Shown here piece by piece: positions 7,113 to 31,482 of a stretch of DNA of 32,000 bases (positions within the stretch are counted from its first letter, which is position 1; each line of letters opens with the position of its first letter). The position numbers were made by a program, and so were the translations under genes. Below the pieces are notes generated by a model, which was not told the origin of the DNA, ran no database searches, and saw nothing but the letters and a program-made list of their open reading frames with translations. The stretch spans positions 4,940 to 36,939 of the forward strand of contig JBHLRO010000027.1 in assembly GCA_048882505.1 (NCBI GenBank). The letters run 5' to 3'. The stretch is from Candidatus Thorarchaeota archaeon (GTDB lineage: Archaea; Asgardarchaeota; Heimdallarchaeia; Hodarchaeales; Hodarchaeaceae).

Positions 7113-7685
7113 TTGAACCTAAAGACTTTCGTTATTGAAACCTTTGAAATTGCTAAATGAAATGTCCTAAAAGCTATATACAGGTTAAAACCAAGGGACT
7201 TTGAAAGACAAATAACATCAAATCTAAATCCAGTTAGATGGGGTATTGGCCACCTTACAATACAGATGGATACAGTTTTTAACCATCTTTGCCTTGGTGA
7301 TAGGAGATTAGACCAAGATTTCCGAGATTATTTTGTTATGGGCCCGGATAGAGCTAGTAAAAGAGAATTTCCGATGTCTTATAGGGCATTAATCGACCAA
7401 TTCCTTGAATTTTCCGAAGCTAGTATTGAATACCTCAATAACCTGCCGGAAGATAAGTTTATGGAACCACCAGCGCACAATACTAAAAAAAATACAGAAA
7501 CAATGGTTGAATTAATACAGAGGATTTCTCTTCATTTCATGGGTCACACTGGACAGATTTATCAAACCAAAAGAGAATTAGGGAAGGGGGGTACGTTTGT
7601 AATGGGAATAAAGAAGAAAAATCGGGATGATAGTAAAGCCAAATGGCTTTCCTGGTGGAATGCACACAAAAATAATTACCTTTAA
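7113..7685 (+). pseudogene. DinB/DUF664-like protein with an in-frame TGA at 7158-7160
   Basis: The frame of ORF 7266-7685 extends upstream through the DinB-type motif NPVRWGIGHL to TTG 7113 (LNLKTFVIETFEIAK*NVLKAIY). A second His motif (ISLHFMGHTGQI) is in the 3' part. Confidence 0.7.
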
Positions 7686-13595: not shown

Positions 13596-14993
13596 ATGAA
13601 ATCTAGAAGGACCGTGATCCTATTTTGTACAATCATTTTGTCTATAAATGTATACACAGCATCATCTCTTATCGTCACTAGTACTAATGAGCAAAAGCCG
13701 ATAAGTTCAGTAACGGAAGCAATGAGTACCGTTGAGAAGAAATTAAAGTCCAATGCACAGGTGTTTGAAGAAATAAACGTATCAACCATACTTTCTAAAC
13801 TAAAAACGACAGGAAAGTTTGTTTTATCATTACCAGACAGAGATATCACGTTAAACCTCAATGAGAAGGATTATAATTTGGACTCTTCTGAGGAAATTTA
13901 TTTTTATAACGGATTTGTGGAGAATTATGAAAATAGCGAGGCGTATTTAACATTAGATAATCATCGTATTTCAGGAAGAATAGAATTCCCAACTAAGGAT
14001 CGGGGTATTCAATCATATTCAATTTCGCATATTTCTGACTATATTAATCCAAAGATCAACGAAAAATCACCGATCCATATAATACGGCAATTAAACAAAT
14101 TCAATAATACAGCGTATGATCAAGTAACGAATTCTTTTTATGAATTAACTGAAGACGATATACCAAAATCTGATAATAATTCTGATTACACTTGCTGCGC
14201 CGATCAGGAACAGGAAAATGGAATCATAAGGACTCTTCACGACAGATTATCTTCAATTAGTGCGAGTGGTTACTATGCAAAGGTAAAAATTTTTGCCGAT
14301 TATTACTACTATCAACATTACGGAGACACCAATTGGTATTATATGGATGAAGTGAATTATGTTATTGGCAAATGGGGAGTTTCTGAACAGCAAAATCCTG
14401 ACATTCAAATATCAGTGAAAACAACAGATGTTTGGACAAGTACAAGTGAAGGTGGGGGTTGTTATTCCGCTACAAGTATGTCTGATCTTCTTAGTAAATT
14501 TAGAAGTTGGGGCAATAGCCAAGGCATATTCGGTACCTGGAGCGGGCCGGGACCTGGTGACCATTGGAACGGTGATACTGACTTTGCATTATTAATGACG
14601 GGAAAAGACTGGGCTGATTACCTGGGAATGGCTTACTATCAAGATGCTGGAGTTTACAACTCAGGTACTTATAAGTATGCATTATGTGAAATATGGCCTG
14701 GATTGTTTACAGAAATTGTTGCTTGGGGAATAAGCCATGAGTGGGGGCATTTGTTTGCAGGACATCATGATGCTGCTCATGGGGGTCCATGGGGTCATCG
14801 TGCCTGGGCATGGTGTGATGCTTGGTTTTTTGGAATTTGCACTGGATATCGTCAAACAAATATGTGGTACGGATATATTTTCCTACAAGCTTCGATTGGA
14901 GTCTTTTCAAAGGCAAATGTTGATGGAGCTAGTTCAGCCGAGAATAATATTTATTATATTCGCCAGTGGCGAAATAATTACTTGAGATCTTAG
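13596..14993 (+). CDS. Secreted metzincin zinc metalloprotease (reprolysin/M12B-like) with prodomain
   Basis: N-terminal signal peptide; about 200-aa prodomain ending in TCCAD; DTDFALLMTG strand; GMAY; HEWGHLFAGHHD; Met-turn TNMW. Confidence 0.85.
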   Translation: MKSRRTVILFCTIILSINVYTASSLIVTSTNEQKPISSVTEAMSTVEKKLKSNAQVFEEINVSTILSKLKTTGKFVLSLPDRDITLNLNEKDYNLDSSEEIYFYNGFVENYENSEAYLTLDNHRISGRIEFPTKDRGIQSYSISHISDYINPKINEKSPIHIIRQLNKFNNTAYDQVTNSFYELTEDDIPKSDNNSDYTCCADQEQENGIIRTLHDRLSSISASGYYAKVKIFADYYYYQHYGDTNWYYMDEVNYVIGKWGVSEQQNPDIQISVKTTDVWTSTSEGGGCYSATSMSDLLSKFRSWGNSQGIFGTWSGPGPGDHWNGDTDFALLMTGKDWADYLGMAYYQDAGVYNSGTYKYALCEIWPGLFTEIVAWGISHEWGHLFAGHHDAAHGGPWGHRAWAWCDAWFFGICTGYRQTNMWYGYIFLQASIGVFSKANVDGASSAENNIYYIRQWRNNYLRS

Positions 14994-15023: not shown

Positions 15024-15425
15024 ATGCAAGGCAATATAAAGCTCTTCGCTATTGGTGCGATTCCTGTTTTGGCAATTACAGTTCTAGGAATAATATTTCT
15101 CTTCAATGCGGGGTTCCCCGTTATTGATCCAGGTATCACTGAAAATAATTTCACTATCATGATAGTTGAAAGAAAAGCCACTCTGCCTTCCCCTTCTGAT
15201 CCTTTCCTAAATGTATCTGAATCTCAAATTAATCGGTGTATGATCTTAAAAACAGCGTGTCAGGATCTCATTGAGAACGATCAAGATTTGATTGAAATTA
15301 AAATTAATGGTAGCGAATTAACCTGCATTACTTCATTTCTGGAATCACTATCGCCACAAGGTGCCGGTACTTCTTTGATTTACTATCAAGGATTTTATTT
15401 TGAAATTGCCTTCTTAGTAGGTTAA
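15024..15425 (+). CDS. Membrane-anchored hypothetical protein (133 aa)
   Basis: N-terminal hydrophobic helix (LFAIGAIPVLAITVLGIIFLF); 30 bp downstream of the protease gene on the same strand. Confidence 0.7.
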   Translation: MQGNIKLFAIGAIPVLAITVLGIIFLFNAGFPVIDPGITENNFTIMIVERKATLPSPSDPFLNVSESQINRCMILKTACQDLIENDQDLIEIKINGSELTCITSFLESLSPQGAGTSLIYYQGFYFEIAFLVG

Positions 15426-15554
15426 TATTTCATCATATATCGTAAGCAGCGGAATTAATAGTGAAGGAAAGGGAAGAATTCCACGAATCGGAGTGACTGT
15501 CAATAAAGCGAGAGGAATAAGAAGGGAAATTTGGCCTATTTGAGCTCGTGCCAG
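15414..15554 (-). pseudogene. Truncated secreted-protein 5' stub, copy B (CTG start, signal peptide)
   Basis: LARAQIGQISLLIPLALLTVTPIRGILPFP aligns without gaps to the N-terminus of 18714-18962 (13/30 identical); it stops after 46 codons. Confidence 0.6.
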
Positions 15555-15622
15555 GATAGGAACCTCGACTAATTCATATGTTTAACCCCCTCAAAATTTA
15601 AACTCTTTCTTTTTTTTCTGGA
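15451..15622 (-). repeat. Diverged ~170-bp repeat, copy B (promoter + SD + CTG + signal-peptide coding)
   Basis: Shares AGAAAAAA..AAGAGTTTAAATT, GAGG-N5-ATCCTG and CTATTAATTCC with 18858-19031. Confidence 0.75.
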
Positions 15623-15755
15623 TGAGATCACGGAATTAGATGCTAATCACATCCCCTAATAGGTCCCGTCAGAGATCCGAGAGAAAAACGTTTACAACCG
15701 GGTAATTCTCGTACCCCAACCAAACCCATTAAGGAACACCAATTTCTAAGATGTT

Positions 15756-16838
15756 CTAGTTATTCGCAGAACTTAATCGAATACCAAGTCGTGAGACAAT
15801 AAACATGTTAAGAGAAAAAAACCAGATCCAGAATGAATAAATCAGAATGAAGTTGTGCCAATTATTGCTGGTACTAATCCCCCTAAGTGAAACCACAAAA
15901 AATATCTGTACAAGAAGAATTAGTAGAAAGAACCGAAGCCAACGAGGTCTCGGAGGAAATTCTTTGTCTAATCCCTGTAATATATTTCTTATTGTTGCTT
16001 TCTGGATTTTTTTTTCATTATTAGGACGCTCTTTGCGTTGAATAGTGATTCTCCTCCCTTCTTCAACTCCTGACCGATGGTTTAATAAATAAAGATTCAA
16101 TTTGATTCGTATGGGCTGCCAATAATAAACCATAAATGCAATAGAATGCAATAAAGGCCCTGGGAAAAAAATTATAGCCTCCTGAATAACATAAAAGACT
16201 CCATTGTCAAAATAGTAAGAAGTAATAGGATTAGGTATGATTTTATTCAGAATTGCTATAAGAGCAGAAAAAATTGTAAAACTCATAAAATAGAAAATGA
16301 ACCAAACATAAATCCATTTCAAAATAGGTATTTTCGTATTGGTTGCGTAATCTTGCCACTCTTCCAGTTCAGTGGCACTTTTGGGGGGTGGATCACACCA
16401 AGCGAGACAAAACCCAAATAGACCTAATATTATTGTTAATCCAAGGTATAATGTTAGAACAGGGATAACAAGTATCATTCCCCCTGAATCAGTCCTAGAA
16501 GTTGTAAATACCCCGATACCAATAGGAATCATGAAATATCCTGCAATTCCAAAAAATAACCCATAATTATTTGCACTTATTAAAGAAGAAAGTTTTTGAG
16601 TCATTGTTTTAAAAACTAAAAGATCAAGCGTGAAAAATGTCACCAAACAACTAATATAATAAACCGCGGGGCCTACCAAGATCATCAAGAAGTTTTCATC
16701 CTGTGTCCATCCAAAAGGATCCCACCCAGAAATCAACCAACCAAATGTTCCAAGAAAGACTGTAATTGTGGCAGAGGCAGCAAAACAACAAGCAATAAAT
16801 GAATAAATCAAATTTGAAAAAACAGATTGCTGTTCCAC
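15756..16838 (-). CDS. Polytopic (~8 TM) membrane protein, paralogue M3
   Basis: About 8 hydrophobic segments; GWLISGWDPFGW and FFPGPLLHSIAFMVYYWQPI match 19045-20136. Confidence 0.85.
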   Translation of the reverse strand: MEQQSVFSNLIYSFIACCFAASATITVFLGTFGWLISGWDPFGWTQDENFLMILVGPAVYYISCLVTFFTLDLLVFKTMTQKLSSLISANNYGLFFGIAGYFMIPIGIGVFTTSRTDSGGMILVIPVLTLYLGLTIILGLFGFCLAWCDPPPKSATELEEWQDYATNTKIPILKWIYVWFIFYFMSFTIFSALIAILNKIIPNPITSYYFDNGVFYVIQEAIIFFPGPLLHSIAFMVYYWQPIRIKLNLYLLNHRSGVEEGRRITIQRKERPNNEKKIQKATIRNILQGLDKEFPPRPRWLRFFLLILLVQIFFVVSLRGISTSNNWHNFILIYSFWIWFFSLNMFIVSRLGIRLSSANN

Positions 16839-16839
16839 A

Positions 16840-17270
16840 AGATTCCCCTATCTATCATCGCTTTATCTTTAGGATACCTCTCTAATTTCCTAAGGTTATA
16901 TCTTCCTATTGAATCGTTTTATTTAGCTGTCATTAAGATTTGCGTTTTACCTTCATTTTTACTATACAAAATAGAAATCTTGATATGGATTGACATTGAG
17001 TTAAAAGTGAGTCTAAAAGTCCTTATCGTACCGAAGACGAAAAGACCTCCCAATTACTCCCAAATTTTGGCCTCTTTTTGGATGAGAAGTATATTTTTCG
17101 CCCAATATTCCTCAAGCTTATCGTTAGAGTTTGATTTTGTTTCAATGAAAAATCGGAAGCCTTATTAAGCCTAGGTTTTATATTTAAAACAAAGAATTGA
17201 TCAAATCCATCATATTGCCTAGATCAAAGTCAGAAATTGACTTCGCACTGATTAGTGGTACCATTGGTAG
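16840..17270 (-). pseudogene. Possible decayed ORF of unknown function
   Basis: One minus-strand frame reads protein-like across two TAA stops (KLEEYWAKNILLIQKEAKIWE*LGGLFVFGTIRTFRLTFNSMSIHIKISILYSKNEGKTQILMTAK*NDSIGRYNL); no family recognised. Confidence 0.3.
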
Positions 17271-17321
17271 AGGATGAACGAGAATCGATCCATGAAAAGG
17301 TTTAACTTCAATCTTTCTTAG

Positions 17322-17978
17322 TTGATCTTTATGCCGCATATCGAAGCATTTGAGCAAGGCCTAGATCAGAAAAAACCTCAGGTCGATTCTATTAAGATCC
17401 GATGGTGGAATGTTAAACGACGGGTCTACCGATCCTGGCTTATAAAAGATTATTTTACGCATACAATTCGTGATCCAAGTGTCTGGGTTTTTGAAGAGCG
17501 ATGGAAGAATTATCTGGCACTGTTTTTATCTTCTTTTTTCGCATTAACCTTTCTACTATTTCCCCTCGGACTACTGTATTTTTGGATGTTATCTATCTCT
17601 AGTCTCTACGATTTACTTTACTTGATTGGAGTAGGAGGAGCGTTTTTCCCAATAACGTACTTTCTGGCTGCACTCTTGTTGAATAATGCATATAATCAAT
17701 GGTTTCGTTTCAAAAGTACTAAAAAATTAACCCTTGATCGACAATCCCGCCTCCTGGTGTGGGAACTCAAACCGTGGTTGATGAAGGATTCCAAACATCA
17801 AATCCCACTTAGTAGTTTCACCACCCGGATAATCCAACGATCTTCTTCTGATTATAGAAAGATCCATATTGTCAGAGGAGAGACTGAGTTCGCTGCCTTT
17901 GATCTTTATCGATCAGTGGATAGAACCAAGGTAAGGAAGTTTTGGAGTAACCTTAGTACTTTTCTTCAAAAAGCATAG
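17322..17978 (+). CDS. Hypothetical membrane protein (2 TM plus C-terminal soluble domain)
   Basis: 218 aa; two hydrophobic helices followed by a basic beta-rich segment (KKLTLDRQSRLLVWE). Confidence 0.7.
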   Translation: MIFMPHIEAFEQGLDQKKPQVDSIKIRWWNVKRRVYRSWLIKDYFTHTIRDPSVWVFEERWKNYLALFLSSFFALTFLLFPLGLLYFWMLSISSLYDLLYLIGVGGAFFPITYFLAALLLNNAYNQWFRFKSTKKLTLDRQSRLLVWELKPWLMKDSKHQIPLSSFTTRIIQRSSSDYRKIHIVRGETEFAAFDLYRSVDRTKVRKFWSNLSTFLQKA

Positions 17979-18100
17979 GGAACAGATAATTGAATAACTT
18001 TCCATTCCAAGAGGAGAATGTAACTACAGCCCCCACTCTTCACAGTTTTGTGTGAACTACCCTCTTTTCTAAACAGGTTCTCCCCTACCTCTCTGTTAAA

Positions 18101-18781
18101 TTAGGTTTTCTTTTTTTTTGAGAACCGATGGCTAGATAGAACAAAAAGCGTTGTGAATATCCATGTCCAGATAACTAGGATCCCAAAGAAGATGATTACT
18201 TTTTCATTTCTTCCTGGTAAGATTATTGCACCAAGAATGAATATATAAAAGATTAGGGGAAATGCAAAATACCCTTTCATTAGGTGAACAACCCAATCTT
18301 TGTAAGTTCGTTTTGCATGGAATCTGTAACGATTAATAGTCCTATCAATTGTGTTAATTAAGGATAAATCGTTATTTCGGATATTATACTTCTTTAAATT
18401 GGGCTTCTCCTCCTGTCTTATCCTTAGTAAAACGCGATCTACCCCCTTACCAATTGCTCTCCGATAATAAGTTATAAAGGCTAGAGTATGGAGAAAAGGG
18501 ACGGGAAACAGTAAGATACTGGCTAGCCAAAACTCTAGATTCTTAACTTCGAGGAAGGAAGAGAGAAAAGGATTCGGAAAAAAAAAATTAATAAATAACA
18601 AGACAATGAATACGAATACCGAACCCAATCCGTAGAAGACTAGATATAAAACAATCCATTTTTCAACAAGTATTGTGAGACCGGGAAGAGGAGGAGTTGA
18701 GGCTTGAAGTTCTTTAGACTCCCAATGATTGGGGAGGGGACGCCATCCCAAATATAATCCGCTTAATCCAAACAACATCAA
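18101..18781 (-). pseudogene. 5'-truncated paralogue M2 of the ~8-TM membrane family
   Basis: Aligns to the C-terminal ~60% of M1/M3 (LYLGWRP; FFPNPF; LFPVPFLHTLAFITYY). An in-frame TGA at 18782-18784 lies immediately upstream and the GWLIxxWDPxGW N-terminus is missing. Confidence 0.7.
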
Positions 18782-18962
18782 TCAAGCCATCATTATTGAA
18801 ATCAAGAAATTTTTCAATTGGTTCTCCCACAAACTCCACCTCAACACTTGTCTCATTGGAATTAATAGGGAGGGGAAGAGGAATACTTCCATGAATAGGT
18901 GTAATCATCAATAAAATGGAGGGAACTAGAAAAACAATAAGAACTCTTCGATAGCGAGACAG
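18714..18962 (-). pseudogene. Truncated secreted-protein 5' stub, copy A (CTG start, signal peptide, DFNNDGLID motif)
   Basis: GAGG RBS plus CTG 18962: LSRYRRVLIVFLVPSILLMITPIHG-SIPLPLPINSNETSVEVEFVGEPIEKFLDFNNDGLIDVVWI; it runs out of frame into M2. Confidence 0.6.
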
Positions 18963-19031
18963 GATGGATCCCTCAGTTTACGGTAATGATTAACTCGATG
19001 TCAGAATTTAAACTCTTCCATTTTTTCTAGA
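18858..19031 (-). repeat. Diverged ~170-bp repeat, copy A (promoter + SD + CTG + signal-peptide coding)
   Basis: TATA TTTAAAT at 19012-19006 preceded by AAGAG; homologous to 15451-15622. Confidence 0.75.
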
Positions 19032-19044
19032 ATGGACTAGGATT

Positions 19045-20136
19045 TCAATCTACCTTCCCTTTATAATCGCTCTCATTTATTAATCCGAATTTAAGTGCTA
19101 TAGTGGTGGAAAAAACTGGAATAAAGAGAAAAACCCAAGCCCATATTGCATAAATCAAACTTGGTAGCCATGAACCAGAGAACATCACATAAAATACTAT
19201 TAAGAAAATTGAATCAGCAAATGTTATCCAAGCAATCTCAAACCATCCTGCCTTCTTAAATTCTGTTTCTTCGTTTTGTCCACCACTGATTTCTTTTTGA
19301 TTATAATTTCCTTTTCTATTGGTATTAATCTGATTCATAGGTGTCCTTTTAAATTCATTTGCTTTAGATCGGCTTTCTATCAGATATAAATCCATTTTTG
19401 TTTTAATAGGTCGCCAATAGTATATTACAAATGAGACAGTATGCAGAAAGAGTCCCGGAAAGAAGATTAATGCTAGTCCAACTACTATATATTTTTCTTG
19501 ATCCTCAAAATAGTAAGAGGTGAATACATTAGGAAAAAGGGATCCAATGAACAGTAAAAGCATTATAAAGGAACTAATTCCAATAATATAAACAATAAAA
19601 TAAACTAATAACCATCTATAGGTAGGTATCTTGGCATCATCAAGATACTCTCGCCAAGCTTGGATTTCAGTTTCGTTTTCTACAGATGGTTCATACCATG
19701 AAAGATATACTCCTAATATCGCTAGAATCACAAATAATTCTATATAAACACCCCAAATAGGAACCCAAAAAGTTGGATCTCCGATAGAGACATTTGTTGA
19801 AAGAATTAGTCCAATAGGAATCGAAAATACACCCCATAATCCCAGTGCTGAAGCGAATGGGAGCGAAAAGAGTAAATAATATATTTTGTTGACCGTTTTT
19901 CTGCTGACTAAGATTTGTAAAGTAAAAATGGCAATCAAGCAGCTGAAAAAGAACATAATAGGTCCAAAGGATATCCCCGTAAAGTTGTTGGTATCCAACC
20001 ATCCCATGGGATCCCATCTTGTAATAAGCCATCCTAAGGTCGCAAGAAAAAATGAAAAAAAACCAAATAGGATAAAACCAGCTGAAATGGCGGTATAAAA
20101 TAAGAAAGAAGTTAATTTCTGTTTCAAAATTACCAT
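19045..20136 (-). CDS. Polytopic (~8 TM) membrane protein, paralogue M1
   Basis: ATG 20136 is 14 bp after the giant gene's TAG (the ORF track extends it to 20163); motifs GWLITRWDPMGW and FFPGLFLHTVSFVIYYWRPI. Confidence 0.85.
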   Translation of the reverse strand: MVILKQKLTSFLFYTAISAGFILFGFFSFFLATLGWLITRWDPMGWLDTNNFTGISFGPIMFFFSCLIAIFTLQILVSRKTVNKIYYLLFSLPFASALGLWGVFSIPIGLILSTNVSIGDPTFWVPIWGVYIELFVILAILGVYLSWYEPSVENETEIQAWREYLDDAKIPTYRWLLVYFIVYIIGISSFIMLLLFIGSLFPNVFTSYYFEDQEKYIVVGLALIFFPGLFLHTVSFVIYYWRPIKTKMDLYLIESRSKANEFKRTPMNQINTNRKGNYNQKEISGGQNEETEFKKAGWFEIAWITFADSIFLIVFYVMFSGSWLPSLIYAIWAWVFLFIPVFSTTIALKFGLINESDYKGKVD

Positions 20137-20150
20137 AATTATTAATCTAC

Positions 20151-23100
20151 CTATTCTGCCCACAACATAAATACTGCTGCCATACCCAAATCTAGAAATG
20201 TACCAATACCAAACAGTATTAATGATCTTTTGGTAGGTGATTTGAGAGAGGGAATATTATCCCAATTTATAAATCCATATTCTCGACCATGCCTTTTGCC
20301 CTCGTATCTATCTGCGTTCACAAGAAGATGCAATATTCCTGCTTGTAAAAAAAACAGAATATCTCCAGCAAGAACTGGATCATCATTCAAAAAATGCTTA
20401 ACAGCGGTTTCAGGCCCAAATATGGGAAAAATTATCCCCGCCATTGTAGCGATAGCAGCTACGATCTGTAATCCGTTAGAAAAAATAGCTTTGAATTGAT
20501 TCCACTTTAAACTCGTTTTCTTTTCTACTCTTGGTTCAAAAATTTGTTCAACTATTGGGATCTCGAAAAAGCTGCCCAGCATTGTTCCAATCTGATTAAA
20601 TAAAAATGAAAGAACATTAGCTCCTAAGTAATTGAACCTTACTCCATACTCCGAAATGATTGAACCAGGGAGATTCAAGAGAGGATTTCCCCCGACATAC
20701 GCCCAGTTTAGGGTTGCCCAAAACACTGACTCGATATCCATGACAAATGCTAGTAATTCACCAACTTCAGAAGCTGTTGCAATAACGCTATAAGATCTTG
20801 AAAGTATTGCTGTGAATAAAAAGATTGAAATCGAAGTTAACTTCTGTAAAGTAGAATGGTTATGCTCTCCTGGGGAATTGGAAAGAACAGATGAAAATGA
20901 ACCCCTGCCCCCGGTTTGATGAGCTGTCGGGAATATTGCTGTTGGATTAATTAAATACAGAAGACCCCCAATAAAGGTCGTACTTAGATCGAAAAAGGCT
21001 TTAAAAATTAGATTCTGAGAAGCTGATCTTAATCTGGTCATAAGAAAAGTCAGTAAGTCTCCCCACAATGAAAAATTCAATATATTTTCGAGTGATCCTA
21101 ATTGATGAATAATCCCAGAAAATGTAATTATGTTCTCTAATCCAGGCGAACTAAAATTCTCCACCAACTCAATAAAGCTATCTATGTGTTGATCACCCCA
21201 TGATTCAAGGTTTAAAATATTTGAAAAGGAAATTATGTTATTATTTCCCCACGATACAATTAATGCTTTGAAAGCAGTTGTTATTGTTATTTTCAAAAAT
21301 TCAGAAACTAACGTGAAAACCAAATCGGGTCCAATAAGACTCAGCAGGTCTTGGATGATACCGGGAAAAGCGAAAACCTGTTGTGCAACTTTTATCGTTT
21401 GATAAAATGAATCAGCCGGACCTAACATGGTAGCAACATTAGTAGCAAGAGGTTTGATCACTTCTTTAAGATTGACACTACTGAAGGAAGCTTCTAGTCT
21501 TTGTATTATTGTTGTCCAATCTGTATTTTCAAAAATATTGAGAAAAATCTCCTTAACATAATTCTTATAAATTCCAATGATGGGTAATTCTCCCGTTAAC
21601 GCTTGTGTCATAATTGTCAGAACCACTTTCACCGTGGTTACTGCCACCTCTTTGATGACTTCTACAACGGAGCCTAAGGCGGGCGCAATAAGTTGATCCC
21701 ACACATTCAACAGGAAATTCACCACCCCCACTGCTAGCCCCACCAATGTAGTAATTATGGCTGCTACAATTAGAAGAGCAGCTGCGATAAGCGCCCCAAT
21801 AAAGTTCACCAGATCCTCAAAGAATTGTTCAATACCACTCTTTGCATCGGGAAAGCCAAGCCTTGTGGTTATATTCAGACGACCATAAACAGAGGCAACA
21901 AATTCTGGGTTGGCTTCTAATTGCTGCTTGTTATAATTTAATAAAGTAACCAGATCTGCCGCTAACTGATTAACATAGGTTAATCTTTCATGACCTGGGT
22001 CTTCTGGACCATGCTCTCTTCTCCACGGTCTTAATTTCATACTAAGCCAAAGAGTTAAGAAATCGGTTTTTGAGAGATCATAAGGGGTTCTTACTCGGTA
22101 TACTGTAATAATTGGTAAAGGTATAATGTCATCGCTCCAATTAATACCAAGCCAGTCATCGTATTGTCTGATTGCGATTGTTGTGGTATCAAATAATCCA
22201 CTTTCAAGTTCATCTTTCGTAAAAGAAACGACAGGAGATGTTACCTCATACCCTCTCACTAAGTCAATACCAAAGGGAACATCGTGGTAGATATGGGCAT
22301 AATCAGCCACCATTGTATAGGTATTACCCGATTTCGAAAATGCCCCCGAATCTTCAATGTAGGCGCGGAAAATCTTAAACCGTGCATTATTAAACGCATT
22401 TGAGGAGATAAAAGCGGTATTTTCTGGGCCTACATTCTGTATCATTTCCTTAGCGTCGTATGCGGGAGAAACTGAGGTTTCACTCCTGTAATAAAGCCCG
22501 TTGCCTGGGAATTCTACCCGAATTTGTGACTGATACGTTTCATAGGAATAGCGCCCTTTTCCAGATGTATCTAGTGAACGGATGGCCAATAGGTTGTTTG
22601 AGGCATCATAGATGTTGACCCGATGAGTCGTTGCAACAAGGGATCCACCTTGCCTATCTAATAACATTGGAGGATCCTTCTTCAAAGTTTCTGCCAGATT
22701 GAATTCGATAGTCCAGGGGGGATCATTTTCGGGGGCTTCTCGATCAATGGAGAGGGAAGCATCCATTAAGGTAGTTCGTGAATAGGCGGCGGTCAGGGGA
22801 GTGCCATGGATGTATTCTTCATAATCCGTTAATCCATCACTGTCAGTATCAGTGGCCTGGGGGTTACTTCTGGCTTCATATTCTTTGGCATCAGTTAAGC
22901 CATCGTGGTCGGTATCCGTCAGAAGCGGATTGGAAAACACATGCTGTGTATGGTAGGCCGTGCTAGATCCTTGCAGTAGGACGGTGATGTTCCAACCATA
23001 GACTTCCAGGCCATCTTGGAGGGAATCATCATCAGTATCATCATCGGTGGGATCTGTATTAACTAGGAATTCACCTATGCCCGTGCTGGCTTGGTACCCA

Positions 23101-26100
23101 TCCCATAACCCATCATTATCTGTGTCAGAACGCGCAGGATCCGTTCCATAAGTCGATTCTTGACTATCTACGATCCAATCATCGTCCGTGTCTGCCAGGG
23201 TCTCATCGGTGCCCAACTGTGCTTCCAGGACATTGGAGACACTATCCCCGTCGTCATCCCAAAACACCACTAAGGGGTGTTGTTCCGCAGCGCCGACATT
23301 ACTTGGATCCTTGACTTGGAGTAGAAGGGTATGCTGGCCATGGGTCAGGGAAGAGAGATCCAAATCAAGCAGAATCTTGCCATCAGTGACGGAGTGCCAG
23401 GCCTGATTTTCTAGGAGCTCGAGAGGCGTGTTCATCGCGTTGGTGATAGCATATCGGAACTGTAATGCCTGATAATCAAGAACAGTATCGATCGCGGTAG
23501 CATGAATTCGAAAAGCTGAGGGCGCACTTCCATAGATTAAATGTGGGGTGAAACTTACCTTTGGTAATTGATTGTTGACGATGATCTGAAATCCTTGGCT
23601 TGTCTGACGGCCTTCGGAATCAGTGACGGTCAGAATGCCGTGGTAAGACCCATCATTCAAAAACAAGTTAAGACGGCTTTGTGACACATAGATGTCATCA
23701 ATTTGCCACTGATACGCTAAATAGGGGACTTGAAAGGCACTATCTGTGACTTGGGCTTCAATTAGCGTGGTCACACCTTCATTCATCTGGATTTGGGCAG
23801 CTAGTTGAATCTGAGGGGCGGGATTTTGAACCCAAACCACGAATTCGACGGTATCATTCGCGGCATTATCATCTAAAATGGTCAAAGTTCCCCGATAGAC
23901 CCCACTGTGATAATATCGATGGGTGGTCAGCGCGGAGTAGCCAGAGTGCGAGTCTCCATCCCCAAAATCCCAAATAAATCGCAGACTATCTCGATCAGAC
24001 AGGCTATCAGAGGATGTTGAGGCATTGAATACTAACGCGGAACCCACCTCAATCGATTGGCCTAGGGCGTGTTCTACATAGCCTGTGGGCCTGACGTTAT
24101 CGACCTCGACTAAAATCCCTCGAGTGGTATTATACTGAGCTCCTTGGACAGTCAGTTCCACCAGGTACAATCCTGCGGTAACGAAGGTATGAGTGACCCT
24201 CGGACTGGCAGTGATCTGGGTCGTTCCATCACCGAACTGCCAGTGATAGACTAGGAGCTGCTGATCTATGGGTGAAGAGAGCACTTGCGCATCGAATGTA
24301 ATGAGCTCGTCTTCCCAGGCCTGGCCGACTCCCCGATCAATGCTCGAATTAATCGCTTGGATGCGTGGCGCACTCCCTGCCAGATGATATCCTTCAGAAG
24401 GGCCAAACGGGGCTTCAAACAGATAAGTGGAGTTCCTACTTCCTCCATCTTCATCTAAAATTCGGAAGGTTAAAAGAAAATAAGGGGGGGTGTCGTTCAT
24501 CGCAAAATTCTGGGTAAGAATGGTGACCCCTTGATTGGGGCCGACTGTTGAGGCCAGGATGGTCAGATTAACCTGGTCGGTGGGGTGAATCACTTCCAGG
24601 GTGAGATCGTCCTGGCCAGGGTCATAGAAATTGATGTGATAATCTATCGGAAATCCGGTGACGAAGGGCTGGAGGGGGAGCCGCCAAAGATATCCTTCCG
24701 GTGAATTATAATTAAAAGTATGTTCGAACAGCCAAGAACTGCCCGTCGAGAAATTCAAATAAAGATGTACGGGATCCGCACCCTGGGGTTGGCCATTAAC
24801 AGGGTCATTCTCAGGGGTATATAAGACTTCTACTCGCCAAAGATGCGTTAAATCCAGGGTTACAAACGGGTAGAATAATGATTGGTTCCAAGGATTAGTA
24901 GCATTCCGATAAATGATGTCATTTAATAATATTTGATCAGTTTCATCGAGTAATTTTAATTCAGCATCATGCCATTTTTCCCCAGTCATAAGGAGAGTTA
25001 GGTTAAAAGTAAGGGTGGTCGCTACTAAGCTTGCACTGGGAGCGACGTTATAGAATGTGACGTGCGACTCACGGGTCACACTTGCCCCATTATCATCCGT
25101 TAGGGTGCCCGTAACTCTTAAATCTTGTTCATCAAAATAAGTCCAGCTGACAGTCTGGCCCCTTTTATTTTCTAAAAACCACCGATAGCTTAGGCGGGGT
25201 TGATCGCTTGGGGTATCTTGGCCTTGAGAATGGCTAATTAGGGTCTGGCCTTCGGGGAGGAGGGTCCGATTCAGTTCGATTTGACTCCAAAACGGAAGTT
25301 GGTTCTCGACGGTGATTACGGTTGAGACCTCAGCTTGCCCTCCACTCGGATCCCTGACAGTTAACCTTACCTGATAGATACCCTCCTCAGTATATTGATG
25401 CTGGACAGTCGGGCCCGATCCAAGTGTTCCGTCTCCGAAATTCCACCCAAACAGCAAAGATCCTACATCTGATGGCGAGTCGGTGGTCTCTTGGGCATCA
25501 AAAACCACTGTTTGGTCTTCGGTACTTTCGGTAGCATTGACCTGCATGGTGGCACTGGGTAGGACGTTCTCGACCCGAAGAGATCGTGAACTCATGCCAA
25601 CCAAGCCTTGGTCATCAATGGCTTGGAGAGTGACCTCATAAGTCCCGGCCTCGGTATAAGTGTGCGTAACTGCGGAACCATTGGCTGATTGCCCGTCTCC
25701 GAAGAGCCATTGATACTGCATGGCCGCTACATCGCCTGGGGAGTCCACAATGGAGGTCACGGAGAAAGGAACGACTTCGTCTTCCCAGACCTCGCTCTTT
25801 TCCAGCTCGAATGTGACGGTTGGCCCTTCATTTTGAACCGTGACAGCCACAACTTTTAGATGGGTTAGGACGCGGCCGAGTTCGCCCACCGCTTTAATAC
25901 CGGTTACCGAGACAAGAAATCCACCTTCAATGGCAAATGCATGGTAGACTGTGGTTGTGACCGGATCCACCGTCACGGGAGGAGTACCGTCATGAAAATC
26001 GAAAATAAACTGACTGACAGCCCCTTCAATGGATGTCAGCCGAAAGGAAACGGCTTCGCCCACATCAACGACGGACGGGGAGGCTTCCACCGAGAAATCA

Positions 26101-26219
26101 AACTCATGGAGTTCTGATTGGAGGATTTTACTCCCTATGTTAAATACCAAAATGCCCATGATTAGTGTAGTGCTCAAAGATAGGTAAATCTTTTTATCTG
26201 GCAGGAACCCCCTCTTCAT
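20151..26219 (-). CDS. 2022-aa secreted/surface protein: PKD/Ig array, Ca-binding DxDxDG repeats, hydrophobic helical C-terminal region
   Basis: Signal-like N-terminus; repeated W-x-FGDG / THTY...G.Y.V.L motifs; GTDP...DTDxDGLxD repeats; many NxS/T sequons; several long hydrophobic helices after about aa 1465. Confidence 0.9.
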   Translation of the reverse strand: MKRGFLPDKKIYLSLSTTLIMGILVFNIGSKILQSELHEFDFSVEASPSVVDVGEAVSFRLTSIEGAVSQFIFDFHDGTPPVTVDPVTTTVYHAFAIEGGFLVSVTGIKAVGELGRVLTHLKVVAVTVQNEGPTVTFELEKSEVWEDEVVPFSVTSIVDSPGDVAAMQYQWLFGDGQSANGSAVTHTYTEAGTYEVTLQAIDDQGLVGMSSRSLRVENVLPSATMQVNATESTEDQTVVFDAQETTDSPSDVGSLLFGWNFGDGTLGSGPTVQHQYTEEGIYQVRLTVRDPSGGQAEVSTVITVENQLPFWSQIELNRTLLPEGQTLISHSQGQDTPSDQPRLSYRWFLENKRGQTVSWTYFDEQDLRVTGTLTDDNGASVTRESHVTFYNVAPSASLVATTLTFNLTLLMTGEKWHDAELKLLDETDQILLNDIIYRNATNPWNQSLFYPFVTLDLTHLWRVEVLYTPENDPVNGQPQGADPVHLYLNFSTGSSWLFEHTFNYNSPEGYLWRLPLQPFVTGFPIDYHINFYDPGQDDLTLEVIHPTDQVNLTILASTVGPNQGVTILTQNFAMNDTPPYFLLTFRILDEDGGSRNSTYLFEAPFGPSEGYHLAGSAPRIQAINSSIDRGVGQAWEDELITFDAQVLSSPIDQQLLVYHWQFGDGTTQITASPRVTHTFVTAGLYLVELTVQGAQYNTTRGILVEVDNVRPTGYVEHALGQSIEVGSALVFNASTSSDSLSDRDSLRFIWDFGDGDSHSGYSALTTHRYYHSGVYRGTLTILDDNAANDTVEFVVWVQNPAPQIQLAAQIQMNEGVTTLIEAQVTDSAFQVPYLAYQWQIDDIYVSQSRLNLFLNDGSYHGILTVTDSEGRQTSQGFQIIVNNQLPKVSFTPHLIYGSAPSAFRIHATAIDTVLDYQALQFRYAITNAMNTPLELLENQAWHSVTDGKILLDLDLSSLTHGQHTLLLQVKDPSNVGAAEQHPLVVFWDDDGDSVSNVLEAQLGTDETLADTDDDWIVDSQESTYGTDPARSDTDNDGLWDGYQASTGIGEFLVNTDPTDDDTDDDSLQDGLEVYGWNITVLLQGSSTAYHTQHVFSNPLLTDTDHDGLTDAKEYEARSNPQATDTDSDGLTDYEEYIHGTPLTAAYSRTTLMDASLSIDREAPENDPPWTIEFNLAETLKKDPPMLLDRQGGSLVATTHRVNIYDASNNLLAIRSLDTSGKGRYSYETYQSQIRVEFPGNGLYYRSETSVSPAYDAKEMIQNVGPENTAFISSNAFNNARFKIFRAYIEDSGAFSKSGNTYTMVADYAHIYHDVPFGIDLVRGYEVTSPVVSFTKDELESGLFDTTTIAIRQYDDWLGINWSDDIIPLPIITVYRVRTPYDLSKTDFLTLWLSMKLRPWRREHGPEDPGHERLTYVNQLAADLVTLLNYNKQQLEANPEFVASVYGRLNITTRLGFPDAKSGIEQFFEDLVNFIGALIAAALLIVAAIITTLVGLAVGVVNFLLNVWDQLIAPALGSVVEVIKEVAVTTVKVVLTIMTQALTGELPIIGIYKNYVKEIFLNIFENTDWTTIIQRLEASFSSVNLKEVIKPLATNVATMLGPADSFYQTIKVAQQVFAFPGIIQDLLSLIGPDLVFTLVSEFLKITITTAFKALIVSWGNNNIISFSNILNLESWGDQHIDSFIELVENFSSPGLENIITFSGIIHQLGSLENILNFSLWGDLLTFLMTRLRSASQNLIFKAFFDLSTTFIGGLLYLINPTAIFPTAHQTGGRGSFSSVLSNSPGEHNHSTLQKLTSISIFLFTAILSRSYSVIATASEVGELLAFVMDIESVFWATLNWAYVGGNPLLNLPGSIISEYGVRFNYLGANVLSFLFNQIGTMLGSFFEIPIVEQIFEPRVEKKTSLKWNQFKAIFSNGLQIVAAIATMAGIIFPIFGPETAVKHFLNDDPVLAGDILFFLQAGILHLLVNADRYEGKRHGREYGFINWDNIPSLKSPTKRSLILFGIGTFLDLGMAAVFMLWAE
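22800..23258 (-). repeat. Six tandem Ca-binding-type (bacterial TSP3-like) repeats within the giant protein
   Basis: DDDGDS, DTDDDW, DTDNDG, DTDDDS, DTDHDG and DTDSDG, spaced by GTDP/TDP/SNP motifs. Confidence 0.85.
23260..26097 (-). repeat. About 9 PKD/Ig-like beta-sandwich repeats within the giant protein
   Basis: FDFHDG, QWLFGDG, GWNFGDG, HWQFGDG and IWDFGDG, plus degenerate units linked by V(E/D/Q/N)NxxP. Confidence 0.85.
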
Positions 26220-26988
26220 ATGAACTTACAAGTTTCAGGGATCGGATTCGTTCCAGCTTGGTTCGAAATAGAGAATTGCGTCTTTATATACGCCAGCTGA
26301 ATAAACTGTCCGCAGATAGGGAGGAAAACGTGATGAATGACTTGAGAATTCGTCCCCAAAATTTGAAGAAACCGACTCAATGGTTGCACATGGTCAAAGA
26401 TTGAAATTTTCTGAGGTAAAAATGAAAAAAACTGAAAAAACTCTAGTTTCAGAGTAAACACAGACATGAACCGGGTTCCTGCTCCACAAACAAGTGGGGA
26501 TACACTTAGTCGGAAGTCGATACCTCAGACCTTTATTGTGGAATTCCAATTTAACCTCCCAAAATAGCTAATTCCAATCAAAAATAGAAATGATTAGATG
26601 AACTAGGATTCTAAAACTTTTTTACCACTTAACTTTTCCTGATTTTTCGATTGATTTATTCTACTATTAATTTATTAATCGCAGGTTCATTTGATTATAC
26701 CAGGAAATATAATCGGACTTGGCCTAATAATCCATTTAACGAATCAAATTTCGTCCAAAACACCCTCTAACCCTGACCCCCTATATTCTTTGTAGATGGT
26801 TGTGAGATTTCTGCAGCAAGATTCTCTAAACAAAATGATTACCACTTCTTAGAAAAAACTTCTAGGAGGTAAGCAGCCAGCAATTAAGCATTCAAACAAA
26901 TATGGAAACGATTATAATTACACGGACTGCTCATTAGCATTTTTATGCAGTACCAAAAGTACACTTTGATTTAGCACCAATCCCTCAA

Positions 26989-28002: not shown

Positions 28003-28677
28003 ATGGCATTTATCTATAGGCTTGAAAATTTGAAGCGGTATTACAAAAGTAAAGAAGAAACCATCAAAGCTCTTGATGGTATCGATACTACTGTCAATAA
28101 GGGTGACTTCATTGCACTTCTGGGCCCTTCAGGCTCCGGAAAAACTACATTGCTGAATTTATTAACGGGACTCGACAAAGCAACTTCAGGAACCATCTAC
28201 TTTCATGATCTTAATTTCTCCAGTTTGAATGATTCTCAATTCTGCGATTTAAGGCGATTCCAGATTGGGATCATATTTCAGTTTTACAACCTGCATCCTT
28301 CTCTTACCGCACAAGAGAACGTGGAATATCCCATGATGATTGCGAACATCCCCAAGCACCGCCAAATTCGTCGAGCTCTCGAACTCTTAGAGTCGGTGGA
28401 TTTGCTCAATAAAAGAGATAATTATCCCCCCGAATTATCGGGTGGGGAACAACAACGGGTTGGCATTGCTCGAGCCTTAGCTAATGATCCTGAGGTTATT
28501 ATTGCGGATGAACCAACTGGGGATCTTGATTCTGAACTGGCCCAGGCGATTATTGAGTTATTAGTGCAAATTAACACTACAGGAAAAACGATTGTGATGG
28601 TCACTCATGATGAGTCGCTCTTACGGGATGAAATGCGGGTAATCCGGCTCATTGATGGGAGAATGTGTGAGTCATGA
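28003..28677 (+). CDS. ABC transporter ATP-binding protein (LolD/MacB-type)
   Basis: [36 protein letters not shown] and VTHD. Confidence 0.95.
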
Positions 28678-31477
28678 GAAACACTTGGGTGGGTGTGGCC
28701 AGGTGAAGCTGATTGGCCTTATGAAAGGAAAAACGCGAGTTCTGTTCCAGCTGTTACGAATTGACTTTCCCATGGCTTTGATTACCTTAATTGGACTAAC
28801 CATCGCGCTTTCGATTTCCGCTGCGACCTTGATTTACTTAGATTCGAAGAAACCAGAGGTTTATATGTCAATCTTTGAGAATGAGGATTTTGAAGAGGAT
28901 TTAAGATTCCATGGAAATCGACATCAATTATCCGCAGAAATATTCACCAATTTTTCAGAATTGAAAGCGATTCAAGAAGCCCTAGATAACCAACTAGATG
29001 AGTACAAGCTAGGTGATATTTTCTCTCCGAGTTCCTATTCCCCTTATTACATGATCGGAGACCAGCCCACCTATTTCCTTGGAATCGCCCTTGATCATGC
29101 CGTCCTTGAGGATTGTATCGAAGGCAGCAGCCTTCCCTCCCTGGGAAATGAAACCATAATATTTAACCCGCATGACACCAATATGAGCATTGGGGAAGTC
29201 TTCAATGTTACCTATACAGAATTCCAATTTGACGTTGAATCGGATCAGGTGTATCGCTTTGACATCAACTATACCATGAAAATCACAGGAATCATCACCC
29301 CCAGTACTCTAAGAGCCGAATCTCCGTTACAACACGTCTTTCCAGAAAATTCCTTTGATTTCTTACCGATTGTTGAGGCTACCGAGATTCCCACGATACT
29401 TGATTCAATAGAACAGGAATTAATATTCAAAATTTTTGAAGCAATCAATAAGGTCAGATCAGACCTAATTCCTGCTGGAATTCATTTTATTTATGCCCTT
29501 AATAAAGCGAACATTCGCCCAAACAATGTTGTTGAGATAATAACCAATTATAATGCTTTCTTAAGAACCACAGGTAGTATGTTTGACCTTGATGGAGCTG
29601 AATTGGTGAATCCTGAATATTACACGACTGCCCCAATCGTTCAGGAGCTTATTACGGATTTTAATAGTAGTTTTTTTCTATTTTTGATCCTCGGCATCCC
29701 CACATTCATCTTGATTTTTTTATTGGTTAAATTCTCCCTTAATTTAATCAATACCCCGAGAAAGAAATCCATAGCTCTTTGCAAAATGCGAGCGGTGTCC
29801 CGAAATTTCATCCTGATCAGTTTGGTCATAGAACTTGTGCTTGTCTCATTCCTGGGTTCAATAACAGGAATCACCATCGGAATCCCTCTTTTTCTATTAA
29901 TGAATACGACTACCGGATTTCTTACCTTTGAATTAACCGAAATTCCCCCCCGGATCGTGCTATCCCTTCCAACCGTGCAAACCATCTGTGTAATGAGCTT
30001 GGTCCTGACTTTCCTTTCCCAATCTCGGCAAATCCTGTCGTTATCACGAGCCAAAATGATATCTTTTAGACAAGTAATGAGTCCAAAGAAGGACCAAAAA
30101 GACGGAAGGCTCCGAGGCAATTTAGACGTTTTTTTGCTAATTCAGGGGGGACTGGGCGTTGTCATCTTCACCTGGTTAGTAGATATCTTATTTCAAAATG
30201 TTGAATTGTTTGGCAACTTCACTTTTTTTCTATTAATCTTAATGATTCTTTCTGCCCTCGCATTCATACTCGGTGGTGTTTTGACCTTGCAGAGATTCAT
30301 ACCGACTGTGATTCAGCAATCTGGCATTTTTTTCTGGAAACGAAATTGGCGCCAATTAGCATTCGCTGCTCGCAACCTTTCCAGCAACATGAGGTTATCA
30401 GAACGCACAACATTACTCATGGCCATATCCCTGAGCTTCTTAATGATCCTGTCCAGTTTGCCTATGTCATATTATGAGTATCACATTGATAATACTTATT
30501 ATAGTTCAGGTAGCGATTGGGCCATTTATACGCCAGACGTGGCACAAAATCCTGATACTATCGCTCAATTACGGGCCATTCCAGGTATCAATGTCACGCA
30601 GGTCGGGTATCGGTGGCAATATCGGGGTATTGAAGAGGATTTTGCTCAAAGCGCCCATTGGCAAGACTATTATGATGATTCCTCCTTGCAGGAATTAGTC
30701 TTGGCCTTATTTAGCTCCAGCGCGGATTTTCCCGCCATAATTTCTTCAAAGTTCGCTAGCCAAGAGAAATTATCCCTTGGGGACAATTTTAGAGGATTAG
30801 AGGAAAAAGAACTCACTGTTGAAGGGATCAGTAATTATTGGCCTAGCACGAGTCCAGGCGATTTTGTCATAACGCCCCTTCGGGCATTAGCAAATATGAC
30901 AGAACACCTAGATTATTATCTGTGGGTGAAGTTTTTAGCAGGTCATAACCAGACCTCTCTGGTTAGTGAAACCCGGAAAATTATTGGATCAATATCGTTT
31001 GAATCGTCTTACCCGCCAGTAAGAGCAAGATTGGGAGAGCTAGAGACTACCAATTATTCCACCGCATTTATCTGGGTGATTATCAATTTCAATTTTCTTG
31101 CGGCTCTCACAGTGGCCTTAAGTGTGATTATTCTGTTTTCATTGGCAAGAATCGTCAGTACTGCCCCAGAGATCGGGCTGAGTCGGGCATTAGGGATGAA
31201 GTATCAGCAGCTCTTTCTCCTGACCCTAATGGAACCTTTCTTGTTATTTTTTCTTAGTGGGATCCCGGGCGCGATCATCGGATTAACTTTACTCGGCGGT
31301 TTTGTCTTTATATTGGGAACCTTTCCGATCCCAGGCCCACCATTTATATTAAAATTTAATTATCCGGTTATTTTTCTTCTTTATAGCGAGATATTTTTTG
31401 TAACATTGGTGATTGGGGCACTATCCTCGTCTCTAGCCATGAGAGTAAATATCGCAAGAATCTTACAGGTGGAGTAA
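28652..31477 (+). CDS. FtsX/MacB-type ABC transporter permease (duplicated architecture)
   Basis: Two extracellular-domain + TM halves with IALCKMRAVS and EIGLSRALGM motifs. The true start is probably slightly downstream (about 28703-28721). Confidence 0.88.
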   Translation: MMGECVSHEKHLGGCGQVKLIGLMKGKTRVLFQLLRIDFPMALITLIGLTIALSISAATLIYLDSKKPEVYMSIFENEDFEEDLRFHGNRHQLSAEIFTNFSELKAIQEALDNQLDEYKLGDIFSPSSYSPYYMIGDQPTYFLGIALDHAVLEDCIEGSSLPSLGNETIIFNPHDTNMSIGEVFNVTYTEFQFDVESDQVYRFDINYTMKITGIITPSTLRAESPLQHVFPENSFDFLPIVEATEIPTILDSIEQELIFKIFEAINKVRSDLIPAGIHFIYALNKANIRPNNVVEIITNYNAFLRTTGSMFDLDGAELVNPEYYTTAPIVQELITDFNSSFFLFLILGIPTFILIFLLVKFSLNLINTPRKKSIALCKMRAVSRNFILISLVIELVLVSFLGSITGITIGIPLFLLMNTTTGFLTFELTEIPPRIVLSLPTVQTICVMSLVLTFLSQSRQILSLSRAKMISFRQVMSPKKDQKDGRLRGNLDVFLLIQGGLGVVIFTWLVDILFQNVELFGNFTFFLLILMILSALAFILGGVLTLQRFIPTVIQQSGIFFWKRNWRQLAFAARNLSSNMRLSERTTLLMAISLSFLMILSSLPMSYYEYHIDNTYYSSGSDWAIYTPDVAQNPDTIAQLRAIPGINVTQVGYRWQYRGIEEDFAQSAHWQDYYDDSSLQELVLALFSSSADFPAIISSKFASQEKLSLGDNFRGLEEKELTVEGISNYWPSTSPGDFVITPLRALANMTEHLDYYLWVKFLAGHNQTSLVSETRKIIGSISFESSYPPVRARLGELETTNYSTAFIWVIINFNFLAALTVALSVIILFSLARIVSTAPEIGLSRALGMKYQQLFLLTLMEPFLLFFLSGIPGAIIGLTLLGGFVFILGTFPIPGPPFILKFNYPVIFLLYSEIFFVTLVIGALSSSLAMRVNIARILQVE

Positions 31478-31482
31478 GGTTT

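Follow-up and report, generated by a model that had tools for sequence, protein, structure and literature searches.

A candidate polymorphic C-terminal cassette locus of toxin/immunity type in an Asgard archaeon

Does an Asgard archaeon carry a locus organized like the polymorphic toxin systems of bacteria? The question is raised by a stretch of 32,000 nucleotides (nt) from Candidatus Thorarchaeota archaeon (assembly GCA_048882505.1, contig JBHLRO010000027.1, positions 4,940 to 36,939), hereafter the window, which makes up nearly all of its contig (C27) in a genome of 4.3 Mb and 94.5% completeness. The window encodes giant A, a predicted surface protein of 2022 amino acids (aa) with a variable hydrophobic tail at its C-terminus, and, directly downstream, polytopic membrane proteins of one family, here called M. 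An initial annotation of this DNA had described a protein of 2022 aa with a PKD stalk, calcium-binding repeats, a hydrophobic hinge and a hydrophobic C-terminus, and the open reading frame (ORF), the Pfam matches and the hydropathy profile all bear this out. Judged from gene arrangement and from comparison with related loci, this appears to be a polymorphic C-terminal cassette locus of toxin/immunity type, with the same logic as contact-dependent inhibition (CDI), Rhs and type VII secretion system (T7SS) toxin loci. The structural features by which polymorphic toxin systems are recognized are present, and none of the domain-level ones is. The candidate effector and partner families are both undescribed, Asgard-specific parts.

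Tail and partner gene in related giants

The evidence comes mainly from two relatives of giant A. Giant B (P0004) lies on locus L005 of a Hermodarchaeota metagenome-assembled genome (MAG; annotated at NCBI as 'Candidatus Hermodarchaeota archaeon'), and giant C (P0030, 1998 aa) on locus L016 of a JGI metagenome. Giant A is 50% identical to B and 54% identical to C, and the three proteins are collinear to the last residue. The comparison between B and C is the most informative. In the coordinates of giant A, their protein identity is 91-93% over residues 670-1300 and 86% over 1300-1460, falls to 67% over 1460-1545, 44% over 1545-1660 and 21-25% over 1660-1850, and stands at 36-44% over 1850-2022; the two tails as a whole are 37% identical. 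At the DNA level, positions 859-3425 of L005 match positions 11960-14529 of L016 with 90.6% identity over 2573 nt, and past this block, through the tail and the M gene, nothing matches except one marginal segment of 85 nt between the M genes (69%, E 0.001). The break falls at about residue 1517 of giant A, within the conserved motif VWD(E/Q)L..PALGS that directly follows the hydrophobic hairpin. The genes next to the two giants, MB beside B and MC1 beside C, both belong to the M family and are 30% identical in protein sequence, although the bodies of the giants exceed 90%. Since near-identical giants are joined to divergent tails and divergent M genes, tail and partner gene have been replaced together.

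Two traits of polymorphic toxins are therefore found here: the N-terminal body is conserved, with a sharp recombination boundary between it and a variable C-terminal module, and the gene directly downstream co-varies with this module. The initial annotation had proposed to ask whether C-termini and downstream genes vary together among homologues of the N-terminal part, and in giants B and C they do (tails 21-44%, MB and MC1 30%). The C-terminus is likewise far from the uniformly conserved anchor that it had named as the outcome speaking against a toxin locus, with tails at 21-44% against bodies at 91-93%. Near their ends, tails A, B and C and the orphan tails described below share invariant polar motifs, H..D..GD..F..QA(G) and KR...D..M, which may mark a functional site of the membrane domain. 

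As regards the N-terminus, giant B is without the first ~660 residues of A and C. Positions 1-900 of L005 hold an ORF of 113 aa that overlaps the start of giant B and has a signal-like segment of its own; either giant B is a shorter allele whose N-terminus differs, or the MAG contains a frameshift.

Orphan cassettes, partner exchange and distribution

A third trait of polymorphic toxins, the presence of orphan C-terminal/partner cassettes, is found on L016, L071/L072 and L074/L075. On L016, 2.5 kb after MC1, lies P0018, a tail fragment of 253 aa with 24-34% identity to tails A, B and C; 54 nt further on comes an intact M gene, MC2 (346 aa). On L072, which belongs to the same MAG as giant B, an M gene with 97% identity to MC1, represented by its 3' end, precedes P0020 (a tail fragment of 138 aa), then M_D1 (a distinct M) and then another M that is 67% identical to MC2; the layout of L071 is the same. 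On L074 and L075, tail fragment P0015 is followed by an M that is 71-74% identical to MC2. The fragments P0018 and P0015 are 50% identical, and the M genes alongside them 71-74%. For the six adjacent pairs of tail and M, the distances of the two partners are correlated (Mantel r 0.58, 21 of 720 permutations as high), a value driven largely by one pair; in this small sample the correlation is suggestive of tail type and M type tracking each other. Each of the eleven M copies found has as its neighbour a giant, a tail fragment or a further copy of M. MC2 occupies positions 20455-21495(+) of L016 and is absent from public gene calls, which list three short ORFs on the opposite strand.

In the window, M1 starts 14 bp past the stop codon of giant A. 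The corresponding spacing is 16 bp on L016 and 10 bp at L008, another locus of the family, which fits co-transcription. Downstream of M1 the orphans of the array are all M genes (M3 and the fragment M2): no tail remnants were found in the window upstream of M2 or M3, tail A has no second copy elsewhere in the genome, and the genome contains no M copies besides M1, M2 and M3. No N-terminal half of M2 is detectable upstream of the fragment. Some 250 nt downstream of M1 are homologous to those downstream of M3 (68% column identity in an alignment of 519 columns), so that a unit of M plus downstream flank was duplicated; and since the duplicated flank is fused to the M2 half-gene, the junction is the deletion scar of a once longer array. 

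Much of what the initial annotation said of this array is upheld. The protein with about eight transmembrane (TM) segments lies where it was placed, 14 bp after the giant gene. One of the two further diverged paralogues, M3, is full-length, while the other proves to be merely the 3' half of an M gene. Orphan genes of immunity type do accompany the system, as orphan M genes and orphan tail-M cassettes in relatives and as M genes alone in the window. The opposite expectation, that M genes would occur mostly without the giant gene, disagrees with the neighbours of the eleven M copies given above.

The history of M3 differs from that of the giant next to which it lies. M3 is 72% identical to MB in amino acids and 80-82% in nucleotides, and the DNA match continues for 140 nt upstream of M3, to a point ~39 nt past the stop codon of giant B. 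The synonymous divergence (dS) between M3 and MB is 0.45, whereas the stalks of A and C have a dS of ~2.8. The common ancestor of M3 and MB is therefore much more recent than that of the giants, which points to a more recent exchange of the M cassette between lineages. M3 is an orphan partner gene of foreign (B) type. The ratio of nonsynonymous to synonymous divergence (dN/dS) is 0.09-0.18 in the stalk (0.09 for the PKD stalk of A vs C), 0.34-0.43 for pairs of M genes and 0.45 for orphan tails. Evolution is faster in the cassettes than in the stalk, without net positive selection. The five full M proteins have in common the invariant residues W41, N51, P202-N203, D212, F226-P227-G228 and R256. 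In general, displaced or acquired cassettes accumulate downstream of the giants, as the broken M2 and the B-type M3 in the window and as pairs of tail fragment and M in relatives.

The system is very rare. The C-terminal module and M were not found in 60 relatives, 21 of them of the same genus. A core/tail profile matches 0 of 399 other Asgard species genomes, in which an M profile gives two marginal short matches (E ~1e-4) that were taken as noise. An M alignment searched against genome and metagenome contigs yielded no matches. Word-index protein searches, which are insensitive here, returned with M1 only M1 itself and with the core of P0030 only giants B and A. An exhaustive phmmer search with residues 1140-2022 of giant A among 1.84 billion representatives found 21 proteins, all of which contain the core. 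The distant members, which lie on contigs of low GC content (29-33%) and one of which comes from 'Candidatus Hodarchaeales', share the core, the hairpin and the motif after the hairpin. Conservation within the family is highest in a stretch that starts with '..GFP..', spans the hairpin and ends with 'VW(D/N)..(V/I)GP.LG..(I/V)E.VK'. The last 300-370 residues of the distant members are unalignable to tail A, even profile to profile. The tails of the distant P0006 and P0008 cannot be aligned to the profile of tails A, B and C, and since the cores are ~28% identical, non-homology and divergence are inseparable in these cases.

At most distant loci the next gene encodes a membrane protein. The two polytopic proteins downstream at L008 give a profile match to M (hhalign E 1.4e-4, probability 53%) and have the motif (F/L)FP.P in common with it, which is suggestive of a remote relationship to M. 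On L014 (positions 1-7540; soil metagenome, 29% GC), three core/tail members stand in tandem, one of them 5'-truncated and two cut by contig ends. They are interleaved with a protein of 359 aa and ~6 TM segments and with two proteins of ~210 aa and 2 TM segments, which makes up a second, more distant cassette-like array. An integrase of the rve family abuts the 5' end of P0007, which seems to be 5'-truncated, and leucine-rich-repeat proteins lie beside two related loci (joint coordinates for integrase and leucine-rich-repeat proteins: L008 1712-2548(-), L016 17991-18833(-) and L008 801-1292(-)).

Possible functions and closest known systems

In functional terms, the tail could be a membrane-inserting effector and M its polytopic immunity protein, a reading that seems about as probable as all others together. 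The stalk would present the C-terminal module at the cell surface, and the conserved hairpin would drive insertion into a membrane. The variable tail would then perturb the membrane of any neighbour without the matching M, while the cognate M in the membrane of the producer would bind the tail and neutralize it within the bilayer. Extra M genes would represent acquired protection against the tails of relatives.

Several observations weigh against such a toxin. In size and hydrophobicity, the tail goes far beyond typical toxin tips. At the C-terminus, Pfam gives no toxin family at E<=0.01 and just sub-threshold noise at E<=10, and neither toxin, immunity nor trafficking domains were found by Pfam, PADLOC, PDB sequence, Foldseek, VIA-align or Atlas searches. 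Overall dN/dS is below 1. The polymorphism is sampled from three full giants and three orphan tail fragments, all of them metagenomic, and the distant Hodarchaeales locus (L006) has no membrane-protein gene directly downstream. The tails are still homologous (29-44%) and keep an invariant polar motif, so that they are divergent alleles of one membrane domain and not unrelated domains. Above all, a Sec-type signal combined with hydrophobic C-terminal segments leads one to expect insertion into the membrane of the producer itself, and hence no delivery route is evident. To our knowledge, no archaeal route to the membrane of a neighbour has been described, and delivery is the main weakness of the toxin reading.

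The co-variation evidence does not separate a toxin/immunity pair from a self-recognition pair. Tail and M might be identity determinants that, within one membrane or between two, bind each other in an allele-restricted manner, a match permitting kin adhesion, cooperation or membrane exchange, with no toxicity involved. Such an allorecognition pair, the main rival of the toxin reading, somewhat improbable and by no means negligible, would explain the co-variation and the sharp break equally well. It would also suit the absence of any toxin domain, a long adhesin-like PKD/TSP3 stalk made for cell-cell contact, and the fact that both partners are membrane-embedded, like the variable regions of IdsD and IdsE. 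What it leaves without an obvious use in an identity code are the hoarded orphan partners and truncated orphan tails, which are a signature of immunity hoarding, and an intact M3 of foreign type without its tail fits protection better. A rather unlikely explanation does without conflict altogether: the tail would be the multi-pass anchor of an adhesin and M a partner in its assembly or stabilization, with the mosaicism arising from relaxed constraint and recombination among paralogues. The N-terminal signal and the hydrophobic C-terminal segments do predict integration into the own membrane, dN/dS is below 1, and in the model the last ~230 aa pack into a compact bundle of helices (pLDDT 70-88) whose H, D, D and Q residues are invariant, as would suit a functional membrane domain. 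However, there is no reason why the identity of an anchor should drop at a single position from >90% to ~23% when the exposed stalk remains conserved, and the linked replacement of the neighbouring gene, the orphan tail-partner cassettes and the foreign-type partners would be unexplained. Moreover, the core was found in 0 of the 399 other Asgard species genomes searched and M gave just two marginal matches there, a distribution that suits an accessory trait as opposed to a housekeeping surface structure.

It would be more surprising still if M were an enzyme of the membrane (sortase-, protease- or transferase-like), dedicated to processing or attaching the C-terminus of the giant and co-evolving with this single substrate; this is very improbable. 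Invariant polar or special residues do occur across the five full M copies, and enzymes of the exosortase/archaeosortase type are typically encoded beside their one substrate (PMC8416519), which counts in its favour. Nonetheless, M has no similarity to exosortase, CPBP, rhomboid or any other Pfam family at E<=10, and giant A ends in a multi-helix domain and lacks a sorting-signal architecture (short motif, single TM segment, basic tail). Cys66 is not conserved in MC1 and MC2, Cys66 and His232 are not invariant across the five M copies, and multiple diverged and orphan copies are unexpected of a processing enzyme. A bolder reading, speculative and with a low chance of being correct, is an Asgard-specific contact system: the conserved hairpin at the end of the long PKD stalk would insert into or merge with the membrane of a neighbour and carry in the variable polytopic tail, whose fate would be decided in the bilayer by the allele-matched partner with 8 TM segments. 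If true, this would be intramembrane kin discrimination coupled to archaeal membrane contact or exchange, with no bacterial counterpart and possibly relevant to Asgard cell-cell interactions.

Pfam (to E<=10), NCBIfam (for the neighbours), PADLOC and a PDB sequence profile returned nothing for tail, core, M or p218, a small membrane protein encoded within the array, and the earlier statement that no known toxin domain can be recognized holds after the Pfam, PADLOC, PDB sequence and fold searches. No secretion module (TPS, Rhs/PAAR, LXG etc.) was found, the PKD domains being the only Pfam matches; the N-terminus of giant A resembles a Sec-type signal or anchor. With a model of residues 1140-2022, the fold searches (Foldseek-PDB, VIA-align wide and Atlas) matched the first ~110 residues to generic Ig-like folds and otherwise gave just helical matches at background level. 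In particular, no helical match to a pore-forming or colicin-like fold rose above background, in a model whose residues 1460-1790 have a predicted local distance difference test score (pLDDT) of ~40. An Atlas feature search with the tail reached a best score of 0.87 to unnamed clusters, which is a lead only. The AlphaFold2 (AF2) model of M1, built from an alignment of 6 rows, has a mean pLDDT of 50, too low for use, and the Atlas model (pLDDT 0.42) has no meaningful neighbours. The complex prediction of tail A with M1 scored 0.00 with the verdict 'no answer', which counts neither for nor against binding.

Among described systems, TspA with its DUF443 proteins is the closest functional analogue, and VARTIG the closest archaeal one. 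The bacterial polymorphic toxins (CdiA/CdiI, Rhs, MafB; Zhang et al., 2012, PMC3482391) resemble the present system in their long conserved body with a sharp break at a conserved motif, in a variable C-terminal module that is exchanged with the next gene, and in their orphan C-terminal fragments and orphan partners. They differ in that the host here is an Asgard archaeon, with no two-partner secretion (TPS), Rhs/YD, PAAR, LXG or VENN-type pretoxin motif found, and in that the variable module is a hydrophobic helical region of ~500 aa with a partner of 8 TM segments. TspA of Staphylococcus aureus acts as a toxin that depolarizes membranes, accompanied by a string of ten DUF443 genes, five predicted TM segments each, for immunity (PMC7456083); it has 469 aa, is exported by the T7SS and was modelled on colicin Ia (PMC7456083; PMC9484751). 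Like TspA/TsaI, the locus would place a polymorphic membrane-acting C-terminal domain beside a string of non-identical polytopic membrane paralogues. Unlike it, giant A has 2022 aa, a Sec-type signal and a PKD stalk; there is no sequence or Pfam relationship and no colicin-like match, and no M protein matches the DUF443 Pfam model at E<=10. VARTIG of Thermococcales is a large surface protein of Ig domains whose C-terminus is hypervariable by recombination and which is organized like a polymorphic toxin system; its authors found no counterpart outside Thermococcales (PMC8416519). Both are archaeal surface proteins with a recombining variable C-terminal region and variable downstream genes. The variable part of VARTIG, however, is Ig (CARDB-like) and its downstream genes often encode Ig proteins, whereas here the Ig/PKD part is conserved, the tail is helical and hydrophobic and the partner is polytopic; in its architecture, VARTIG (arCOG07710) is thereby set apart.

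The pore-forming domain of colicins is a bundle of ten helices in which amphipathic helices bury a hydrophobic helical hairpin, and the gene beside the toxin encodes a protector embedded in the membrane. Giant A likewise has a predicted hydrophobic helical hairpin and an adjacent gene for a membrane protein, but its hairpin belongs to the conserved part and precedes the variable tail, and no fold or sequence match was found with a model that has a pLDDT of ~40 in the hairpin region. The Ids proteins of Proteus mirabilis are small and depend on a type VI secretion system, and the variable regions of IdsD and IdsE are membrane-associated; we know of no arrangement of Ids genes with orphan cassettes. 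As in the present case, they are two proteins that each have a variable part, but no sequence relationship exists. In IdsD/IdsE, variable subdomains set the allele-restricted binding (PMC4471559). Both colicin Ia and Iia are discussed in the report on TspA (PMC7456083).

The locus would extend polymorphic-toxin organization to the Asgard archaea. Breakpoint, co-varying partners, orphan cassettes and a recent foreign-type partner are evidence, at the level of sequence, for an Asgard polymorphic effector/partner system. They define constructs for tests of antagonism or allorecognition (tail A with M1 vs tail A with M3; tail B with M3), and they come with a new, very rare protein family (21 among 1.84 billion representatives) that has a conserved membrane-insertion-like element.

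Anatomy of the locus and its surroundings

The features of the locus are listed in Table 1. Giant A is matched by Pfam PKD_4 (E 6.7e-67, 5 stretches) and PKD (E 3.5e-50), its homologue giant B matches TSP3_bac, and the TSP3-repeat region of A is 71-74% identical to B and C. With PKD domains and DxDxDG repeats behind a signal sequence, it has the composition of a PKD-domain/TSP3-repeat surface protein. The hydrophobic stretch of 42 residues that forms the hairpin has a Kyte-Doolittle value of 2.78, and three clear TM segments follow at residues 1912-2021. In the AF2 model, the helical bundle of the final ~230 residues has a pLDDT of 70-88, and the ~280 residues of helices after the hairpin are poorly modelled (residues 1460-1790, pLDDT ~40).

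Table 1. Features of giant A and of the downstream M array, in window coordinates
Feature	Position	Strand	Description
Giant A gene	20151..26219	-	2022 aa, ORF open throughout; signal/anchor, PKD stalk, TSP3-like repeats, core, hairpin, variable tail
N-terminal hydrophobic segment, aa 11-33	26121..26189	-	Predicted signal peptide or signal-anchor; conserved in giant C
PKD/Ig-like stalk, aa ~40-985	23265..26102	-	Matched by Pfam PKD_4 and by PKD in 5 stretches each
TSP3-like Ca-binding D-rich repeats, aa ~990-1135	22815..23252	-	DxDxDG motifs read directly
Conserved family core, aa 1140-1460	21840..22802	-	Ig-like sandwich and alpha/beta domain, AF2 pLDDT 80-95
Hydrophobic helical hairpin, aa 1466-1507	21699..21824	-	Best-conserved element of the whole family
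Junction motif VWD.L..PALGS, aa ~1505-1520	21660..21707	-	Similarity of B and C breaks down here; presumed site of recombination
Variable tail A, aa ~1517-2022	20154..21671	-	Helical, hydrophobic; last ~230 aa modelled as helical bundle
M1	19045..20136	-	363 aa, ~8 TM; putative partner of tail A, candidate immunity protein
Flank after M1	18782..19044	-	Homologous to flank after M3; fused to M2 3' half (deletion scar)
M2 fragment	18101..18781	-	3' half of M gene, aligns to M1 138-363
p218	17322..17978	+	218-aa 2-TM protein, opposite strand inside array, C-terminal soluble part; membership in system uncertain
M3 and 140 nt upstream	15756..16978	-	Orphan M of B type
M3 gene	15756..16838	-	360 aa, 33-35% identity to M1 over full length
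Flank after M3	15451..15755	-	Duplicate of flank after M1

The protein p218 has a layout like that of the small 2-TM proteins that follow family members on L014 (4722-5339, 5353-6012) and L007 (15981-16502), at 16-25% identity, for which homology is not claimed.

The composition of the window changes along the locus. From ~13000 to ~22000 the GC content is 0.33-0.39, whereas the flanks have 0.42-0.46 and the part of giant A that encodes the stalk has 0.44-0.52, and within the giant the GC content at third codon positions (GC3) goes from ~0.5 to ~0.31 at residue ~1300. A tRNA search revealed no tRNA gene in the window as a marker of an integration site. The flanks carry nothing unusual: genes of beta-oxidation and genes for a MoxR-type ATPase, an M50 peptidase and an ABC/FtsX transporter. 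The same genome carries an archaeal small-subunit (SSU) rRNA (1091 bits) and a true actin (Pfam Actin, 440 bits), which identify it as that of an Asgard archaeon.

Next to the array, positions 13596-14993(+) encode a protein of 465 aa (p465) with the zinc-metalloprotease motif HEWGH and a match to Reprolysin_5 below the cutoff (E 2.9e-5). Its gene is convergent with M3, has a low GC3 (0.31) like the cassette region and is not conserved beside the related loci; p465 may belong to the same low-GC island as the cassettes. A protein of 465 aa with an HExxH motif encoded on L008 has no significant similarity to p465, and the resemblance is treated as a coincidence. Between p133 and a protein of 304 aa of L008, no similarity was found either. 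Upstream of the giant, an ORF of 83 aa without TM segments (26216-26467(-)) overlaps the start codon region of giant A with its end by 4 bases, and has no conserved counterpart upstream of giant C. At 8226-10929(-), a MoxR-type AAA ATPase (AAA_5) overlaps by 8 bases with a protein of 610 aa without a family match, which is the usual layout of MoxR plus partner, the partner being unrecognized. Finally, positions 28003-31998(+) encode an ABC ATPase, an FtsX-type permease of 941 aa and a second ABC ATPase, a MacB-like exporter set that lies 1.8 kb upstream of the giant A gene on the opposite strand.

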